Of a stretch of 64,000 nt of DNA, positions 1,616 to 49,727 are shown one piece after another. The stretch is taken from positions 298,158,001-298,222,000 of the forward strand of contig OZ024743.1 in assembly GCA_964016885.1 (NCBI GenBank). Reading direction: 5' to 3'. The notes under the pieces were generated by a model. It worked only from the letters and a program-made list of their open reading frames with translations, was not told the origin of the DNA and made no database searches. The DNA is from Eledone cirrhosa. Taxonomy: Eukaryota. The translations under genes and the position numbers were made by a program. Within the stretch, counting starts at the first letter, position 1, and the number at the start of each line of letters is the position of its first letter.

Positions 1616-3479
1616 GGTTGGCAGTGACTTCAAAGTATTGCTGGTGACTGGCTTCATTAGTGTGCCAAAGCCAGTCACGATGAGACTTCAAAGTCATTGT
1701 CAACCGTTTCATTGTAAAAATAATTTTATACTCTACTTAAATGTATTAAATATTTTTTCAGTTAATATTTGATTGTTTTTATGTATGATTGTAAATAAAA
1801 TGCATACATAACACAATATATATATACATATAGTATACACATATATATATATATATATATATATACACATTGTGCCTCAGCATGGCTTCAGTCCAATGAC
1901 TAAAACCAGTAAAAGAATTTATGAAGCATCATTAATTCATCATCATCAACATCATTATCATTTAACGATGATTTTCCACACTTGCATGGGTTACACGGGT
2001 CGTCATGTTATGAAACACGTCGGGCCAGGAGGTCGTGAGACCGCATCTTGCTTATACTGACCTGTATTTTGGCTTGGTTTCTACAACTGGATACCCATCC
2101 TAATATCATTGAACATACACTTTTCATACTTGCAAGGTTTCTTTTTAGCATCGTTCTTCTAATTCTCACTGTATCTTTCACTAATATGTTTATTTTTCTT
2201 TCTTATGTAAGTTTCAGTATTGTTTGCTCATGGTCATTCTTCGTACCTTATGCATTATATTGTATTTCTTATTTTTTTGTTTATATGTGGATTTATGGCA
2301 CACATCTCACAATTGTTTTTACAAATATCACTGTCACTGTCTATCTGATAGATTTTGTTTCTTTCTATGACTTTAATATTGTAGGAATATTTTCTTAAAT
2401 TTCTTAGTTAATTTACAATTGAATGCGGGATCTACAAACATAACATTAACAAATTTTTATCATACTATGTACTGGTCATGGTTGACTCTTTCATCATCAT
2501 CCTCATTGTCTTTTTAATGCTCACTTTCCCTGTTAGCAAAGGTTGGATGGGTCTATGCAGACCAAGTCAGTATTGAAGTGGGGCTGCTGATCTCCCAGAC
2601 AGGCCAGGGATCTGTATCTTGCTTCTGTACAGTTTCATGTTCTACTGAGTGCACAAGGAGAGGTTGTTATGTCTTTGACACAACTGTCTTCCCAACCTTT
2701 TATTTGGCAAACTTTCTATGGCTGGATGCCCTTCCTAATATTTCAAAATTTGTTTCAGTATACAAGACATATTACCATTTGTATCATTTTAAAACTTTTT
2801 ATGTTGTCTTTATACAAATCTAGACCTATCTAACTATATAACTGGAATTGCTACTCTTGTGGTTGGTACATTTATGAGGTCTGTCATTAGAATGTTTAAT
2901 TTGGCAGTTTCTAACACAGCAGTGCCTTTTCTGATCATAGTGTGTTTGCCATGAATTTTCTGTTGTATATATAGCAGGTATATATAGCAGGTGTGATCTG
3001 CTGATAGCTACATTTTGTAACCATAATTCAACATCCAGTACAGGTAATCTCCTATTGTGGTGTCTATAGAGCTAGTCAATAATGGATTTCATATTAGCAT
3101 AAATGGAATTTGTTATGTGCATGTTCTTCAGCTGCTTGGCTATTAAGTTAGGGAGTCATAATAATGGCATGGTTCCTCTCATCAGCATATTGAAAGTACA
3201 GTGCTATATTAATATTTAGTGGCAACTAATATTTGTCATATTTGTCAATACCAACACACCATAAATAGTCATTTACCAAACAAGCACAGTACAACTCTGA
3301 AATCTTGATAATACCTTTATGAAATGTATAAATATCATAATGTTTCTTTCTCTTGCTCATACAGTTGTAGCCATTTTTCCTTGTAAAAAGAAAGCAATGT
3401 TTCCTCCATGAAATTGCTTGCAAGTTCTAATTCATGGTTGAAAGCCCTTATTTCACTTTCATTTTCTAATGCTTTCATG

Positions 3480-4560
3480 GGTCAGATGAGCTTTATTGTC
3501 TTCCTTTGTCATTGACTCTGTGAGGTTAAGCATCCTGAGATCATCCTGAACTCTTACCATCCCTGCCCAGGTTTTGCTAGATCTTATTCTATTGCAGCTT
3601 TCTTTCAATAGAATCTCTTGGTTCTTCTCCACCCAATGATCATCATCCATATGTATCTCACATCCATACCAGCACACTCTTCTCTTTTACACACTGTACC
3701 TGAGTCCTCTTATAACTAGCTTTTATCCCCACTCATTTATGCTTTGACATTCATACATATTAGTTTCACAGACCCATCAGATCATGCTTACTTCATTTCT
3801 TTTTAGCCTTCAAATTCCCTCTGCATTCACTGCCCATGTTCACATGCATGTATCATGCCTTTCGTTCATGGAGAGAAACCTTTTGTTATCATCAGAGGTA
3901 TTAGTTTCCTGTCGTTATTATAGCTAGTCTGCTTTCAGATTAACCTCCTACACTACTAAGTAGGTCTCCTAGGTAACTGAAGTTATCAACTACTTCTATG
4001 GTACCTTCCTGGAATTGGGAAAGGTTTATTTCTCTGTGGCTCTTACTTACTAACTACTCCTATACATTTGCCACATACAAAGTCTACCTTTTCTGTTAGC
4101 CTGCTTGCTATCCCACTACATCTCTAATGTAGTTATAATTTATATATACATCATCTCTAGTTCTTATCTTCTTCTTTTCTGTACATTGATCATAGTCACC
4201 TCCCATAGCATTAGCATACAGAAATTCCTAAGGATAGCTAGTTTTAAACTCCTCTGTTACAGCCAGGAGAACTATAATAAACAGGAATGGGCTCAGGACT
4301 GAGTCCTAAAGAACACCTACTTGCACATTGAATTCCTCACTAAAGACATTACCTACTCTCACTTGACTGTTAGCACAGCTCTCAAAAGCCACTAATCTAC
4401 ACCAAGTTTCCTTAAGGACCACCCGATAACAGATTATGATACTCTACCAAAGGTCTTCTCCAGATTAACAAAAGCTAGATATAGTGGTTTACATCTAATT
4501 TGACTTTTTCCATAATTAGTTGAATTAATAATCTTTCTGTTACTTTCATGCCCCTGTAGT
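3480..4560 (-). mobile_element. Highly decayed RTE LINE fragment
   Basis: Reverse strand resembles the RT/C-terminal region of the RTE copies at 16.2 and 49.9 kb (e.g. KTW..VRVQDDLRMLNLTE), with many stops. Confidence 0.65.
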
Positions 4561-5995: not shown

Positions 5996-6878
5996 TCCAG
6001 CTCTGTACATTCATAGTTCAAATTTTGTCTCTCTTGTGCTTGGAAAATGGTAACATGAGAGGACTGGGATCCCTCTATCATTAGAACACCCCAAAAGCCT
6101 ATGAGCTACAATCTGATAGGAGGCTGGCTATACCAGTAAAGATATGAACAACATTAAAATGTTAGCAATCCATATAATAAGTTCTAAGTGTTATTATTGC
6201 ACATTGGTGGAATCTGTGCCAATTACTTCGATATCAAACAATAAATTGAAATACACCTTCCAGTGTATTATTTTTGTGTGATACACAAATTTCACTACAT
6301 TCAAATATGAAATGACAGCTAAGATAGTCTTGTTACTATGGGAACATACTGCAACATTGCTTTTCTATTACAAGTTTATTTGTACATATTTTCTAGTTTT
6401 CCTTGTCTATTTCCTTTTTATTCCAAATATAACAACATTCATGTCAGTGATACACACTTTTAAGTGAAGATGATATATCCTGCATTAGTTTTTATGATGA
6501 GCATCCAGTTTTTTCAGTCAACTGAATTGCTTACTCATTAAAATAATATGTAATATGTAAGTAGCTGTGAGTTATACGAACATGCAGGCCTTTAATATAA
6601 TTCACATGCCAAATCAATGTGACATAATATGTGATAAGATAGATCTTTTGAATTACATGTAAAATCAGTTGACATAAGATCCCATACAGTGGGATTGAAT
6701 ATGGAACATTATGATTGTAAAGTAAACTTCTTAGTCATACTTGCATCCACATCATTTTAAGCATGCTGCTTGATATACACCAAACTATCATACTACACTA
6801 TGTATTTCGGATTATATATATATACATATATATATCTGTTTTGCGAGGTTTTTGATATGAAATCGTGTGTCGAAACAA

Positions 6879-7483
6879 ATATTGATATACTTGGGGAGGG
6901 TCATATTGTTGTAATAATATTGCCAGAAATAATAACAGAACGCACTCACTGTTTTGTTGGTTTTCGCTTCTGTATCTTTTATATCTCCATAGTTAAATCA
7001 TTTGGTCCTCAATGTTTATCATTGACTGACCAATGGTAAAAAATACAGATATAAATACATATATATATAGTCTAACAAAGTTCTTTCGTTGCACATCTGC
7101 AACATCATCAGTGGTACTATTATATTTCCTCCTGTTGTATTGTATGTCTACACCATTTTTATTTTATCAGATAAACAAATAAAATAAAAACAGATAAAAT
7201 AAAAATGGCATAGACATACAATACAACAGGAGGAAACATGATAATAGTACCACTGATGATGTTGCACATGTGCAATAAAAGAACTTTGTTAGACTATATA
7301 TATGTATTTATATCTGTATTTTTGACCATTGGTCAGTCAATGATAAACATTGAGGACCAAATGATTTAACTATGGAGATATAAAAGATACAGAAGCGAAA
7401 ACCAACCAAACAGTGAGTGTGTTCTGTTATTATTTCTGGCAATATTATTACAACAATATGACCCTCCCCAAGTATATCAATAT
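6879..7483. mobile_element. Palindromic solo Penelope pLTR pair (~290 bp inverted arms) in the last IQCA1 intron
   Basis: 6879-7168 is the reverse complement of 7193-7483. The arm is near-identical to 20310-20590, the 3' end of the Penelope element at 20.3-23.0 kb. Confidence 0.9.
7073..7116 (-). ncRNA. Minimal type-I hammerhead ribozyme motif
   Basis: UACCA-CUGAUGA-U-GUUGCA(GAUG)UGCAAC-GAAAG(AA)CUU-UGUUA. The mirror copy at 7248-7291 has CGAAA changed to TAAAA. Confidence 0.7.
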
Positions 7484-9462: not shown

Positions 9463-9797
9463 ATATAAGATCAAAAGATGGTTAAAAGAGTTCCATGTAT
9501 TTTATTATGCGCATTTCAAAAACAAATATCATCATGAGATGACATTTGCGTTTTCGTCAGATAAAATAGGGAGACATGATATGAAGGTTAAAAAACACTT
9601 GTGAATAGTGCAGTTTTAAATCAACATATGATATGTTGATTTAAAACTGCACTATTCACAAGTGTTTTTTAACCTTCATATCATGTCTCCCTATTTTATC
9701 TTACGAAAACGCAAATGTCATCTCATGATTATATTTGTTTTTGAAATGCGCATAATAAAATACATGGAACTCTTTTAACCATCTTTTGATCTTATAT
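9463..9797. repeat. Near-perfect palindrome, 167 bp arms with 1-nt spacer, hammerhead-bearing
   Basis: ...caacatat|g|atatgttg... centred on 9630. A single arm recurs at 32413-32579. Confidence 0.95.
9500..9566 (-). ncRNA. Type-I hammerhead ribozyme motif
   Basis: UUUUAU-CUGACGA-long stem II (CAAAUGUCAUC/GAUGAUAUUUG)-GAAAU(GCGC)AUA-AUAAAA. The mirror copy at 9694-9760 has core CUUACGA. Confidence 0.75.
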
Positions 9798-9904: not shown

Positions 9905-10233
9905 CATTTCATTTTACGTCCGCTTTTTCCCTGCTTGCAAGGGTGGGACGGGAACTGATTCTGGCTTGATTTCTACAGCTGGATGCCCTTCCTAACACCA
10001 ACCTCATTTACAGTGAGTGCTGGGTGCTTTTTTGCCGTGGCACCTCCACGACCACTTTGCAGTGGAATGATAGGGACCCCAGTCCCTATCATCTCATTTC
10101 TACAGCTGAGTAAACTGGAGCAATGTGAAATAAAGTGTCTTGCTCAAGTACACAACACATCACCTGGTCTGAGAATTGAATTTACAACCTTTCGATTGCA
10201 AGACCAATGCTCTAACCACTAAGCCATATGCCT
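9905..10233 (-). mobile_element. tRNA/CORE-type SINE family B with RTE-like 3' tail
   Basis: Reverse strand has an A box (tggcttagtgg), a B-box-like motif, a CORE-like ttgagcaagacactt segment, and a tail shared with the RTE 3' UTR. Copies at 48582, 49375, 51900, 52825. Confidence 0.85.
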
Positions 10234-32183: not shown

Positions 32184-32412
32184 GTATAAATGTATATATA
32201 TATATATATACATATATATACCATATATATGCATATATATATACATATATATATACCATATATATGCATATATATATACATATATATATACATATATATA
32301 CATATATATATATACATATGTATAAATGTATATATATATATACATATATATACCATATATATGCATATATATATACATATATATATACATATATATATAT
32401 ATATACATATAA
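31860..32412. repeat. Long degenerate (TA)n/(TACA/TATG) tract
   Basis: Direct; source of the YI-repeat ORFs. Confidence 0.95.
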
Positions 32413-33060
32413 TATAAGATCAAAAGATGGTTAAAGGAGTTCCATGTATTTTATTATGCGCATTTCAAAAACAAACATCATCATGCAATAATATTTGTGT
32501 TTTCATCAGATAAAACAGGAGAACATGATATGAAGGCTAAAAAACACTTGTGGATAGTGCAGTTTTAAATCAACATATGAAAAGTGGTTTTAGATTGATG
32601 TGTGATATTGGGAAAAATATTTTATTTAGAGAGGGGGGTTGGAAAGGATGAAAAAGGGGAGGAGATGAGAGGGAGAGATGGGTGATAGAGAGAAAGAGAT
32701 AGTTTTTATAACTGAGAGGAGATATATTGTTTTACATAGAGAGGTTGAAAACCGTTGGAAGATAATGTATAAATTAAAAGAATTTGAAAATTAACGAAGG
32801 GAGGATATGTGCGAGGAAAAAATATTTTATTTAGGGAGGGTGGTGGTGGAAAGGATGAAAAAAGGGGGAGGAGATGAGAGTGAAGGTGGAGAGGGAGAGA
32901 TGGGTGATAGAGAGAAAGAGATAGTTTTTATAACTGAGAAAAAGATATATTGTTTTACATAGAGAGGTTGAGAACCGTTGGAAGATAATGTATAAATTAA
33001 AGGAATTTGAAAATTAACGAAGGGAATTTATGTATGAAGATACATTTGTATTTGGGACCA
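32413..33060 (-). mobile_element. Penelope-type 3' region with hammerhead (32449-32515) and an internal tandem duplication
   Basis: Same arm as the 9463 palindrome, core CUGAUGA intact. 32668-32800 is repeated at 32890-33022. Confidence 0.7.
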
Positions 33061-38056: not shown

Positions 38057-38132
38057 AGTTGGAAAGAACAAACAAAACGCAGGAATCAATTGTATACAGT
38101 TGTATTAGGTTCACGGTTGGTGGGAGTCGAGG

Positions 38133-38168
38133 TTTCGACGTTTCGGACTTAAGTCCTTCATCAGGAAA
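38133..38168 (-). ncRNA. Canonical minimal type-I hammerhead ribozyme
   Basis: UUUC-CUGAUGA-A-GGAC(UUAA)GUCC-GAAAC-GUC-GAAA. All core nucleotides present, GUC triplet. Lies in a non-coding unit (38055-38745) between (TA)n tracts. Confidence 0.85.
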
Positions 38169-38765
38169 GTTGAGAGGAACTCCGAGAGGGAGTAAGGAGG
38201 ATTGTAAGGAGGATTGTAAGGAGGGAAGTTTGCAAGTAAATATCACAAAAAGAAGGGAAAAATAAAAATAAATGTAAACAAAAAAAAGAAGTGAAAATAA
38301 AGGAAGGGTGTATAGGTCCGAGATGGCAAGGGTCTGGTAGTGTGTATAGGGGTGGGTTGAGTTGGAGAGGGGAGAGAGAAAGAGTGGGGGAGAAGCAAGA
38401 AAATCAGAGTCCGGGTGGGGATGGCGGAAGGTAGGTGTGTATATATGTGTAGATGTAAGTATGTGTGTGTATGTATGGATGTAAGTATGTGTGTGTGTGG
38501 ATGTAAGTATGAGAGTCTGAAAGGAAGCGAGTGTATGTGAATGTAGGTTCTGAAAAGACATTGTGTATCTATTGAAGTGGTGTATATGTCTGTGCGCGTA
38601 TATGTTCCTGTATGGGTATGTGTATGTGTGCATGTGGATGGAGGGGGTCGGATGTGATGAGAATGTGTCGAGTCCGGAGGAGGTGTGGGGTGAAGTGTGG
38701 GTGTATGTGTGGTTGAAAAGAAGTGAATGTGTGTGAGAGCGTATATATATATAAATATGTATATA

Positions 38766-38883
<118 letters not shown>

Positions 38884-39038
38884 GAAACACACAGATACAC
38901 GCGGACACACACATATATACATGAATGCATCCGCACCCAACTGTGAGTTAAGGGTGCCGACTTCACCGATGTTGCTCAATGAATGACTGGGACAGACCAA
39001 TTCAGTTGAACCAGACTGAACCAGTATCAGAGTTAAAA

Positions 39039-39429
39039 ATACATTATGAAGAGAGAAGAAACATTTAGATATAATTCGTAATAAAATGTATCATACCTAA
39101 ACTGCTCCTAAATTCCTCGACTACGTAGTTTCGTGGCATAAACAAAAACAATATATCAAAGATATAGAGTCCTTGCGAGGTCTGCCGACTTATCAAGAGG
39201 ATACCTCATTTTACTAGTCTCAAGAACGCGTCTACACGACGTGAGAAAGAATCCCACTAGTAAAATGAGGTATCCTCTTGATAAGTCGGCAGACCTCGCA
39301 AGGACTCTATATCTTTGATATATTGTTTTTGTTTATGCCACGAAACTACGTAGTCGAGGAATTTAGGAGCAGTTTAGGTATGATACATTTTATTACTAAT
39401 TATATCTAAATGTTTCTTCTCTCTTCATA

Positions 39430-39435
<6 letters not shown>
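39039..39435. repeat. Palindrome with 180 bp arms and 37-nt spacer, intact hammerheads on both strands
   Basis: 39039-39218 pairs with 39256-39435. Motifs at 39114-39201 (-) and 39273-39360 (+). Confidence 0.95.
39273..39360 (+). ncRNA. Type-I hammerhead ribozyme, U3-A8 core variant
   Basis: UCCUC-UUGAUAA-GUCGGCA...UGCCAC-GAAAC-UACGUA-GUC-GAGGA. Stem III ACUACGUAGU is a perfect palindrome. Confidence 0.8.
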
Positions 39436-39479
<44 letters not shown>

Positions 39480-39484
39480 ATATG

Positions 39485-39549
<65 letters not shown>

Positions 39550-39554
39550 ATGAT

Positions 39555-40969
39555 TGCACATGCAAAATGATTGCACATGCGGTAGGGGCCAGCATAAAAT
39601 TAACCCTTAAGGAACATATGTTCAAATTTAATGGTAAAACATATGCCCAAGAGGAAGGAGCAGCCATTGGTGTTAGCATTGCAGGCGACATAGCTAACTT
39701 ATTCATGGTATGGTGGGACAGTAGACTTAAACAAAATCTTAAAGAACAATTAGAAGACAGCTTAACCCTGATAATGTACTCCCGCTACGTTGATGATATA
39801 AACATCGTAGTTAAGACACCCCCACTAGAGAACAGTCAGGAACTAGAGAAAAACACAATGGAAAGCATCCAGCAAATAGCAAACTCCATCCACCAGAGCA
39901 TTAGAGTTACTATAGACTACCCAAGTAGACACCCCAACCATCGATTACCTGTACTAGACACAGAGCTCTGGTTAGATACAATTAACAACCAAAAACAAAT
40001 CCTCCATTCCCATTATGCCAAACCCATGACTTCCAAACATCTGATCCACCGAAACTCGGCCATTTCGGACCATACCAAAATCAACATACTGATTGCGGAT
40101 TTGGTACGGGTGATGAGAAATGTGTCCCGCATGTGCAACCCCGAAGAACTAGAGAGACACATACAACACTTCATCCACCGTATGCAGTTCTCTGGCTGCA
40201 ATCAGAGAGATAGAATCAGAGTGTATAGAGGAGCCAGAACCAAATGGGAAAAAATGGTAAATAATGACATAAATGGGACCTGCCCCTTGTATAGGAGCAA
40301 ATTTTGGAATAGAATAGAAAGAACTAGGAACAAGGCCAATAGAATAAACTCATGGTATGATAGCAATAAATACCAGAGTGTAATGTTCATCAATACAACC
40401 CCTAGAGGCGAACTAGCCTACAAATTTAGAAGGGCCCTAAATAAACATAAACTCAATATTAAGATAGTAGAAATACCAGGTACCTCCGTAAAAACACTTA
40501 TTAGCAAGACATACCCGTTCCAAAGACCCTCATGTATAGATAAGAAATGTATAACCTGTAAAATAAGCCCCCATATTAACTGTAAAACTAGAAATGTAGT
40601 GTATAGCATAAGATGTACTGAAGGACAATGTAGAAACAAAAATATAGTGTACATAGGTGAGACAGCTCGTAGTATAGGGGAACGAATAAATGAACACTGG
40701 CGAGACCTTCAAGATAATAAAGAATCATCTGTGCTCTACCAACATGCTAAGATAGAACACAAGGGTAAATTAGAGAACATAGAAATAAAAATAGAATCCA
40801 CACACAGAAAAGATGCAATGTTTAGGCAAATTACAGAGGCAGTAAGCATAAAAGAATTACAACCAAAATTAAATAGAAAATATGAGTGGAACAGCAACAT
40901 CACAACTTACAATTAAGGACAAAATGAAAACACACACACACATAGAACAAACAACCAACCAACAACATG

Positions 40970-41000
<31 letters not shown>

Positions 41001-41345
41001 ATAGATAAATGAACACAAACACACACAGACACGCGGATGTGGCGCATGCGCAAACTGAGCACACAACACACACACAGAAACAAAATGGCGTAGGACAGAA
41101 GAAAGGAAAGGCACAGAAACAAAGAGAGGAATCCCCAGTCACTGAAGAGGTCACAGAGTGTGTGACGAAAGGACTATGACTATATATAAACAACTATCTG
41201 GTTGTGGAACCAACCAACCAACCAGAAATTTATAAGTTTGTAGATTTGTAAATTTATAAATATATAATAAATTGAAGTGAAAGCAACTGGTGCGTGTGTT
41301 TCTTATTGGCAACATGACCCTCCCAAAGTATAACAATATATGTAT
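39555..41345 (+). mobile_element. 5'-truncated Penelope-like element (Neptune-like) with uninterrupted RT-GIY-YIG 3' ORF
   Basis: ~450 stop-free codons to 40916: GAAIG, YSRYVDD, LPVLD, CIDKKCITC, VVYSIRC..YIGETARSIGERINEH, RQITEAV, LNRK. The ORF-track N-terminus is TA repeat. Confidence 0.95.
41137..41181 (+). ncRNA. Minimal hammerhead ribozyme in the 3' pLTR
   Basis: AGUCA-CUGAAGA-G-GUCACA(GAGUG)UGUGAC-GAAAG(GA)CUA-UGACU. Confidence 0.82.
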
Positions 41346-48581: not shown

Positions 48582-48965
48582 GGCACATGGCTCAGTGGTT
48601 AGAGCATTGGGTTTGCAATTGAAAGGTTGTGAGTTTAATTCTCGGACCGGGTGATGTGTTGTTTCCTTGAGCAAGACACTATATTTCACATTGCTCCAGT
48701 TTACTCAGCTGTAGAAATGAGATGATAGGACTGGGGTCCCTATCATTCCACTGCAAAGTGGTCGTGGAGGTGCCACGGCAAAAAAACAACAAAAACACCC
48801 AGCACTTACTGTAAATGAGGTTGGTGTTAGGAAGGGCATCCAGCTGTAGAAATCACGACAGAATCAGTTCCTGTATGAGAAAGACAAGCTCAGCCGACCG
48901 GACACTGCCCACAACAGGACAACCCATGCTAGCGTAGAAGAACTGACATAAAATGATGATGATGA
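48582..48965 (+). mobile_element. tRNA/CORE SINE family B with RTE tail
   Basis: ggcacatggctcagtggttagagc (A box), gagtttaattc (B-box-like), CORE-like segment, RTE-like 3' end plus (GAT)n. Confidence 0.88.
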
Positions 48966-49034
48966 AATATAACAGAGTTTTATAGCTTGCTTGAAGCATT
49001 GATGAATAGGAAACACAAATTTAAATTTTTGAAA

Positions 49035-49370
49035 ACCAAGTTGAGGGCCTTTGAACCCCAGGCTATTGCAATAGCTGCTCCTGATTCTAGATGTGGAAGA
49101 CGGGACCTTTGGTACCACACAGTGACGTCCTGTTCGAAAATTGGTCCAGCTCTCAATGCGAAAGTTTGGTCTTAGTCCCCCCAGGATTTTCCATATGTAT
49201 ATCATTGCATATCTCTCCCGTCTTCATTCCGAGGAGTAGAGTTTCAGTTCTTTTAGACTCTCCCAGTCGTTTATCTCCTTTGTGGCAACCTTCTTGGTAT
49301 AGCTTCATTGGATTGCTTCAAGCTCGATGGTTAGTTTGATACTATGGGGTGACCACAGCTGGGAGCATTC
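49035..49370 (-). mobile_element. CR1-like LINE 3' fragment
   Basis: ECSQLWSP...ELEAIQ; RERYAMIYIWKILGGLRPNF...RTGRHC...SLGFKGPQL. Confidence 0.75.
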
Positions 49371-49374
49371 ATCA

Positions 49375-49727
49375 TCGTTTCATTTTACGTCCACTTTTTC
49401 CCTGCTTGCAAGGGTGGGACGGGAACTGATTCTGGCTTGATTTCTACAGCTGGATTCCCTTCCTAACACCAACCTCATTTACAGTGAGTGCTTTTTTTCC
49501 GTGGCACCTCCACATCCACTTTACAGTGTGGGCTGGGTGCTTTTTTGCCATGGCACTTCCACGACCACTTTGCAATGGAATGATAGGGACCCCAGTCCTA
49601 TCATCTCATTTCTACAGCTGAGTAAACTGGAGCAATGTGAAATAAAGTGTCTTGCTCAAGGAAACAACACATCACCCGGTGTGAGAATTGAACTCACAAC
49701 CTTTCAATTGCAAGGCCAATGCTCTCA
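49375..49727 (-). mobile_element. SINE family B
   Basis: Near-identical to 9905-10233. Confidence 0.88.

Follow-up and report, generated by a model that had tools for sequence, protein, structure and literature searches.

The whole stretch of DNA analyzed here (64,000 nucleotides of Eledone cirrhosa, hereafter the window) contains a short two-armed insertion of a ∼595-bp non-coding hammerhead tandem repeat, which we consider likely, with a probability of about 0.7, to have been mobilized by a Penelope-like reverse transcriptase-endonuclease via twin priming. The features of the insertion and its surroundings are collected in Table 1.

Table 1. Features of the two-armed insertion and its surroundings; positions are those of the window
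Feature	Position	Strand	Basis or detail
Whole two-armed head-to-head insertion, 561 bp	38875..39435	.	Window BLAST with the family monomer; flanked by (TA)n
Long arm, monomer 1-384; outer end at fixed site B	38875..39256	-	98.4% to reference monomer
Short arm, monomer 39-220; outer end at fixed site A	39256..39435	+	98.9% to reference monomer
One-arm-only "tail" between sites A and B, monomer 221-384	38875..39038	-	
37-nt "spacer", monomer 2-38, long arm only	39219..39255	-	Junction at 39256, 1 shared base
Left (TA)n target tract	38741..38874	.	Sequence
Right (TA)n target tract	39436..39541	.	Sequence; possible target duplication hidden inside
Type I hammerhead, predicted	39273..39360	+	Helix I UCCUC/GAGGA; helix II with long loop hairpin
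Hammerhead core UUGAUAA (U3-A8)	39278-39284	+	
Hammerhead GAAA	39342-39345	+	
Palindromic helix III	39345-39354	+	
Predicted cut	after C39355	+	
Identical hammerhead of the other arm	39114..39201	-	Core starts at 39196; predicted cut after position 39119
5'-truncated copy of a young coding Penelope-like family	39560..41339	+	CX4CX2C linker, Neptune/Nematis type

A first-pass annotation of the window had proposed a palindromic unit at 39039-39435, in which two almost identical 180-bp arms enclose a 37-nt spacer. The palindrome is real, and we measured a single mismatch in 180 positions between the arms at 39039-39218 and 39256-39435. Its boundaries had to be revised, as 164 bp that extend leftward to 38875 had been missed and make the insertion asymmetric. 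Monomer positions 385-595 are absent from this copy, which is shorter than one unit. Transcripts of this copy in either direction are predicted to form a duplex between the two arms (-352 and -373 kcal/mol), with both ribozymes buried. The long hairpin containing a ribozyme and its antisense, as annotated, is thus supported as a predicted structure of this copy but not as a device, given the buried ribozymes and the missing part of the monomer. Since it comprises less than one unit and would fold as a long hairpin, the window copy is most likely an inert dead-end or end product and not a designed ribozyme-plus-antisense device; at most it would be a source of double-stranded RNA. The left TA tract is adjoined by a Penelope-like terminal piece with a minimal hammerhead (38060-38740, minus strand; CUGAUGA...GAAACGU).

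When the palindrome was searched in its own genome, mostly single arms were returned, often 591-595 bp apart. The amplified unit is a non-coding head-to-tail tandem monomer of 591-595 bp with one predicted hammerhead per unit, and one complete unit from locus L003 served as the reference monomer. It has a GC content of 42% and a fold z score of -7.3, and a tRNA scan found no tRNA in it. The assumption that the palindrome belongs to a family and is not a single-copy sequence is borne out by 7,681 exact genome-wide matches to a 19-nt ribozyme motif, compared with 0 for the control. The outer ends of insertions are fixed at two sites, site A at monomer 220 (219-221) and site B at about 385 (384-390). 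The site A end motif is directly followed by TA repeats 2,736 times and the site B end motif 1,088 times on the forward strand (the reverse-strand site B count is inflated by overlapping matches), which suggests a family of ∼3,000-4,000 insertions. Arms consist of up to 6 aligned pieces in our contig 1 sample, with one arm of 31, and partial tandems explain the terminal repeats of the family. An older subfamily (top 30 loci, 84-100% to L042) has the same two ends, although its second arm is decayed or odd at several loci.

To describe the ends, 48 position-ordered clusters were fetched, all among the first 100 ribozyme matches listed on contig 1. Two arms were present at 25 of the 48 loci; in this count a duplicated pair was entered once, and an additional old insertion in L146 was disregarded. 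Twenty-two of these 25 loci end at A on one side and B on the other, three (L118, L121, and L145) have one odd end, and none of the 25 ends A+A or B+B. Among the 23 single-armed loci, 11 end at A and 12 at B, one of the latter after an internal deletion. A second sample was obtained by pairing the site A and site B end-motif lists over contig 1 (0-70.85 Mb) within 10 kb. Of its 33 neighbor pairs, 31 were head-to-head, one lay between two duplicated insertions, and one was same-strand. All 31 head-to-head pairs were A+B (15 of them outside the 48-locus sample), and all carried the tail, ∼164-165 nt long, at one end only. The inner junctions overlap by 0-7 nt in 32 of 35 cases, and we found no tail-to-tail adjacent arms beside these 35 head-to-head junctions. 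(TA)n tracts flank both the window copy and the insertions of the 48-locus sample. In the largely open-access literature searched, we found neither a one-site-per-arm rule nor two-armed retrozymes.

The palindrome center differs at every locus and arises at insertion, which answers a question raised by the first-pass annotation, namely whether the same center recurs throughout the genome. Of its proposal of a "non-autonomous palindromic ribozyme retroelement," the non-autonomous ribozyme retroelement stands and the palindrome as the amplified unit falls, the unit being the ∼595-bp head-to-tail monomer. It is extremely improbable that the palindrome is itself amplified in the manner of a MITE or is an assembly fold-back artefact. 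In favor of an artefact, the junction of the window copy was spanned by none of the short-read contigs examined, yet each of the two fixed ends was seen, as a loose end joined to (TA)n, in independent short-read contigs, and an artefact would give equal ends, not A+B. Variable centers, arms of unequal length, the one mismatch, and the non-palindromic spacer speak against both versions of this idea. A MITE or DNA transposon with a fixed unit bounded by terminal inverted repeats was ruled out by the unequal ends, the variable center, and the tandem units.

The absence of an ORF from the palindrome, noted earlier, extends to the whole monomer, in which the longest ATG ORF is 75 aa. In the loci examined, we found no reverse transcriptase or GIY-YIG endonuclease ORF in the monomer or in line with it. 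The ORF-bearing master element that had been anticipated did not appear: 30 of 54 loci found with the flanks of the variant ribozyme were examined, and all were family members. Likewise, no weaker relatives of the monomer occurred in the 1.28 Mb of sequence searched; the own-genome DNA search scores the best 23-40 candidates, a depth at which a distant master could escape. These data bear on a second option of the first-pass annotation, an extremely truncated coding Penelope element with an inverted pLTR. Head-to-head pLTR-only insertions of coding families do exist in the window, as at 6828-7481, where a two-armed insertion consists purely of sequence from the terminal repeats of the family located at 20.3-23 kb and only its left arm bears a tail, of ∼55 nt. 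Hammerhead pairs on opposite strands that derive from truncated Penelope-like elements have also been published (PMC4209133). However, upstream of monomer 1 in other copies lies the previous 595-bp unit and not an ORF, and this, together with the short ORFs and the uniform membership of the 30 loci, makes the option very improbable. What survives of it is inversion of the Penelope kind; the truncated coding element does not.

The arm had also been reported not to match the pLTR of the adjacent Penelope element at 41.1 kb and to be a separate family, and we agree. The arm has no match to this pLTR; alignments of the monomer with the full neighboring element were limited to short patches of low complexity (best E 0.009), and the monomer had no real match to the 1229-aa neighbor family. 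This family has an intact 1229-aa ORF at L221:2485-6174, with an asparagine-rich N-terminal part and a CX4CX2C linker, and its top matches share 98% amino acid identity. Pfam, run on 16 frames, did not recognize any piece of a Penelope-like ORF, so the clade assignment is based on motifs. At the 11 loci examined, this coding family has two 3' ends 57 nt apart, and all 6 two-armed loci combine a short and a long end, i.e. A+B. Because the neighboring coding family follows it too, the A+B rule is a property of the Penelope-like machinery in this genome, whose footprint the retrozyme bears. The neighboring family is a candidate for the kind of helper involved and shares no sequence with the monomer.

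The U3-A8 hammerhead that had been annotated on both strands was confirmed. Both strands read UCCUC-UUGAUAA-...-GAAACUACGUAGUC-GAGGA, with the C3-G8 of the core replaced by U3-A8. Helices I and II fold as drawn in our folding computations. The earlier description of a loopless 10-nt palindromic helix III suited to dimers also holds, as ACUACGUAGU is a perfect 10-nt palindrome that forms a self-duplex of -12.9 kcal/mol and no hairpin alone. The motif thus combines a core with the 3-8 pair, helices I and II, an NUH cut site, and a palindromic helix III, as in type I, dimer-type, U3-A8 hammerheads. An Rfam scan of the window gave 0 matches at the gathering score, and the 101-nt ribozyme region alone is no more stable than shuffles (z -1.2); the hammerhead call is therefore based on the core nucleotides, the helices, and conservation. 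Over 36 distinct sequences, the helices are 93-97% paired (92.8% of cells overall), with only 2 double changes, a covariation not beyond shuffles (92 of 500 as high), and RNAalifold did not recover the hammerhead fold on its own. The UUGAnAA core is kept in 26 of 30 older-subfamily loci, and no reversion to CUGAnGA was found in 30 old or 45 young loci. We consider the ribozyme somewhat more likely than not to be active as a dimer.

U3-A8 cores, palindromic helices III, and ribozymes on both strands are already published for Penelope-like elements. Their hammerheads show weak, dimer-dependent cleavage and opposite-strand pairs, circular templates have been proposed, and the U3-A8 covariation was reported with ∼1,300 matches in Schistosoma mansoni (PMC4209133, Cervera and de la Pena 2014). 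Our family resembles these variants in its U3-A8 pair, small palindromic helix III, predicted dimer cleavage, and opposite-strand pairs (theirs 100-700 bp apart). As far as the accessible text of that study goes, it differs in its longer palindrome (10 nt), in the long hairpin in loop II, and in its host, which is a tandem non-coding unit and not the pLTR of a coding element. Other hammerhead and inverted sequences were seen alongside. A near-perfect palindrome at 9463-9797 (167-nt arms, 99%) belongs to a different family and carries a CUGACGA hammerhead with a palindromic helix III (related copy at 32404-32592), and a second tandem U3-A8 hammerhead family with a ∼320-bp unit, a palindromic helix III, and TA targets was found at L110:1-860 and L146:760-1300, being two-armed in L146. 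Inverted 188-nt arms (95%) also lie 749 nt apart at 48601-49725, with related copies at 10085, 52076, and 52833.

The relation between the two arms bears on how the inverted arm is made. For rotifer Penelope elements, the proposal was self-priming or fold-back, with either the first cDNA or an antisense template as the substrate (PMC3846280). Such a route accounts for the head-to-head geometry and for identical arms, and at 2 of 22 two-armed loci (L130 and L133) both arms start at the same base. The short arm of the window copy is nested in the long arm, as fold-back would also produce, so this copy by itself does not decide between origins. Against fold-back, neither arm lies inside the other at 13 of the 22 loci, and the arms of L115, L120, and L131 share no sequence, indicating that both arms were copied from a longer template and not from each other. 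Fold-back also leaves the constant difference between the two ends unaccounted for. The disjoint arms contradict it as a general route, which we regard as improbable, although a minority of loci may have formed this way. Opposite arms differ at 119 of 34,446 sites (0.35%), compared with 0.38% for same-strand units and 2.23% between loci, and arm lengths correlate (rho 0.51, p 0.015, n=22). The near-identity of the arms and the correlation of their lengths fit two simultaneous primings on one RNA. Gene conversion could also raise arm similarity.

We further investigated sequence changes across 66 loci and 256 units, with polarity assigned by majority and an expected A share of 0.38. Changes common to all units of a locus showed an A>G excess on the ribozyme strand, both at private sites (13 A>G versus 5 T>C, p 0.004) and at recurrent sites (14 versus 4, p 0.0008); changes confined to single units (12 versus 18) showed none. 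The simplest cause of this pre-insertion bias is A-to-I editing of the sense RNA, a known source of A>G changes, with transcription-linked DNA mutation as an alternative source. An excess on the sense strand is expected if that strand was the edited template, which counts further against fold-back. At L138 (2799-7375), 6 of the 8 rare changes common to all 6 full units are A>G and an A>G cluster in monomer 250-345 is common to all units of both arms. A private A>G double variant of this locus occurs 8 times in the genome, all in L138, where one arm has 5 of them and the other 3; the units of the locus differ at 19 columns. The most economical reading of the L138 pair is that one edited unit was copied repeatedly, as from a circle. 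An A>G variant at L150 is not private, with 53 matches in many loci.

The template need not have been a circle. It could be a linear multimer produced by read-through of a tandem source locus and used for twin priming, with long arrays produced by unequal DNA exchange and the ribozyme a passenger that need not cut. The predicted cut site is no barrier to the arms, as only 1 of their 72 5' ends comes to lie within 5 nt of it. A linear cut monomer is thereby excluded as the usual template, whereas an uncut multimer is compatible with this result. Inner arm ends accumulate in monomer 480-570 (24 of 72), near TATA-like motifs, with five at 513-518, ∼23 nt after one of these; this cluster could reflect a start site, as a linear transcript would have, a reverse transcriptase stall, or TA microhomology. 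The linear reading gains further from a two-armed B+A insertion on contig 1 at ∼193.981-194.001 Mb (L155-L157), whose long arm of 31 aligned pieces contains 4-5-unit higher-order repeats, showing that arrays also grow at the DNA level. It is in keeping, too, with ribozyme mutants that had no effect on Poseidon insertion in vitro, as stated in the accessible text of PMC11167929. It is strained by L138, where each of the 8 units, on one arm or the other, carries the locus-unique A>G pair; this requires a parent missing from the assembly or separate expansion of both arms. It is also strained by the low divergence of units within a locus relative to that between loci and the conservation of the core in old copies. 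On balance, we regard the linear multimer as unlikely, though still a serious competitor, and lean slightly toward a circular template. Two candidate lines of evidence for a circle were rejected, namely the 31-unit arm, given its higher-order repeats, and a 620-nt single loop in one assembled read set, which a DNA tandem would give likewise. The L155-L157 insertion is a retrozyme turning into satellite DNA. Satellite-like sequence also occupies 52.7-64 kb of the window, where 12/24-bp repeats (53.6-56.6 kb) are followed, from 57.8 kb on, by higher-order repeats of ∼1.3-1.4 kb.

Taken with the end rule, these data make twin priming probable. In the mechanism that we propose, a Penelope-like enzyme would cut both strands within (TA)n, and each free 3' end would pair with a few AU bases and prime cDNA synthesis on the same sense RNA, one at site A and the other at site B. 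The two cDNAs would stop at variable points and be joined through an overlap of 0-7 nt, creating a new palindrome center at each locus. With less support, the template would be a ribozyme-cut, circularized monomer that is copied for more than one turn, and cutting would be restricted to dimers by the loopless helix III. Several observations count against our main reading. The searches described above found no partner element that shares the monomer sequence, the tail of ∼165 nt compares with a published 30-40 nt, and the family ends look AU-primed, whereas the Poseidon protein is described as starting without target homology (PMC11167929).

Animal non-LTR retrozymes have been defined and tied to Penelope-like elements by distribution and pLTR similarity (PMC7229834, Cervera and de la Pena 2020; bioRxiv 10.64898/2026.07.22.740005, Li, Clavereau and Pollet 2026). 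Like those of metazoans, our family consists of non-coding, highly self-paired head-to-tail units with one type I hammerhead each and a GC content below 50%, is present in thousands of copies, and coexists with Penelope-like elements. As far as these accounts describe retrozymes, it differs in its unit length (170-400 nt in PMC7229834 and up to 972 bp in the bioRxiv study), in its U3-A8 core with a loopless 10-nt helix III, and in that about half of its insertions are two-armed with the A+B rule. In the bioRxiv study, 8 of 9 Xenopus retrozyme dimers did not cleave in vitro. We have little doubt that the family is a retrozyme or Penelope passenger, and we describe it as a non-LTR retrozyme that is a non-autonomous Penelope-like passenger.

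The architecture of the insertions has close parallels in canonical EN+ Penelope-like elements. Inverted pLTRs with a tail on one of them led to the proposal of antisense self-priming (PMC3846280), and PMC8557442 described an inverted copy, a tail that is often confined to one end, targeting of (TA)n, and tandem Chlamys elements that are non-autonomous. Our family shares with elements of the Neptune/Nematis type the head-to-head inverted, 5'-truncated arm, the often one-ended tail, partial tandems, and a hammerhead in the repeat, and it has the (TA)n target preference of Neptune, Naiad, and Hydra. Unlike them, in the published descriptions available, it lacks a reverse transcriptase or GIY-YIG ORF and has a longer tail, and it has no sequence in common with the one coding family compared in full. 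Purified Poseidon protein of Anolis carolinensis, a predicted dimer, cuts and extends both strands in vitro and has two internal start sites (PMC11167929). Our scheme likewise proposes that both target strands are cut and extended and that two internal reverse transcription start sites define the tail; it differs in assigning one start site to each arm, a link that the accessible text of PMC11167929 does not draw. The insertions also differ from those of twin priming as it is known for L1. There, a single end is fixed and the arms represent separate, non-overlapping parts of the RNA; in our family, both ends lie at fixed sites, and overlap between the arms is frequent. Our literature searches found nothing on head-to-head retrozymes or on Penelope elements with twin priming, and nothing on point for retrozymes combined with ADAR, rolling circle, and reverse transcription. 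Judged by their listing, none of the papers on octopus Penelope elements or hammerheads describes this family.

Together, these results define a new family of an already known kind, whose value is as a dataset and a substrate for the mechanism of Penelope inversion. How head-to-head inversion with a one-sided tail arises in Penelope-like elements is, by the published accounts, still an open question in the field (PMC8557442, PMC3846280), and the link between retrozymes and the Penelope enzyme has so far rested on co-occurrence and pLTR similarity (bioRxiv 10.64898/2026.07.22.740005). The thousands of young insertions of this short non-coding family allow clean statistics on the A+B rule, on non-nested arms, and on sense-strand editing scars, and the family offers a ready substrate for an in vitro test. 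We tentatively propose, at somewhat less than even odds, that the thousands of copies preserve in the genome a history of twin-primed rolling-circle reverse transcription, in which a Penelope-like dimer would give each cut end one fixed start site and both subunits would copy the same A-to-I-edited circular ribozyme RNA. If true, this reading would explain the inverted pLTRs and the one-sided tail of Penelope-like elements generally and would replace the antisense self-priming model.
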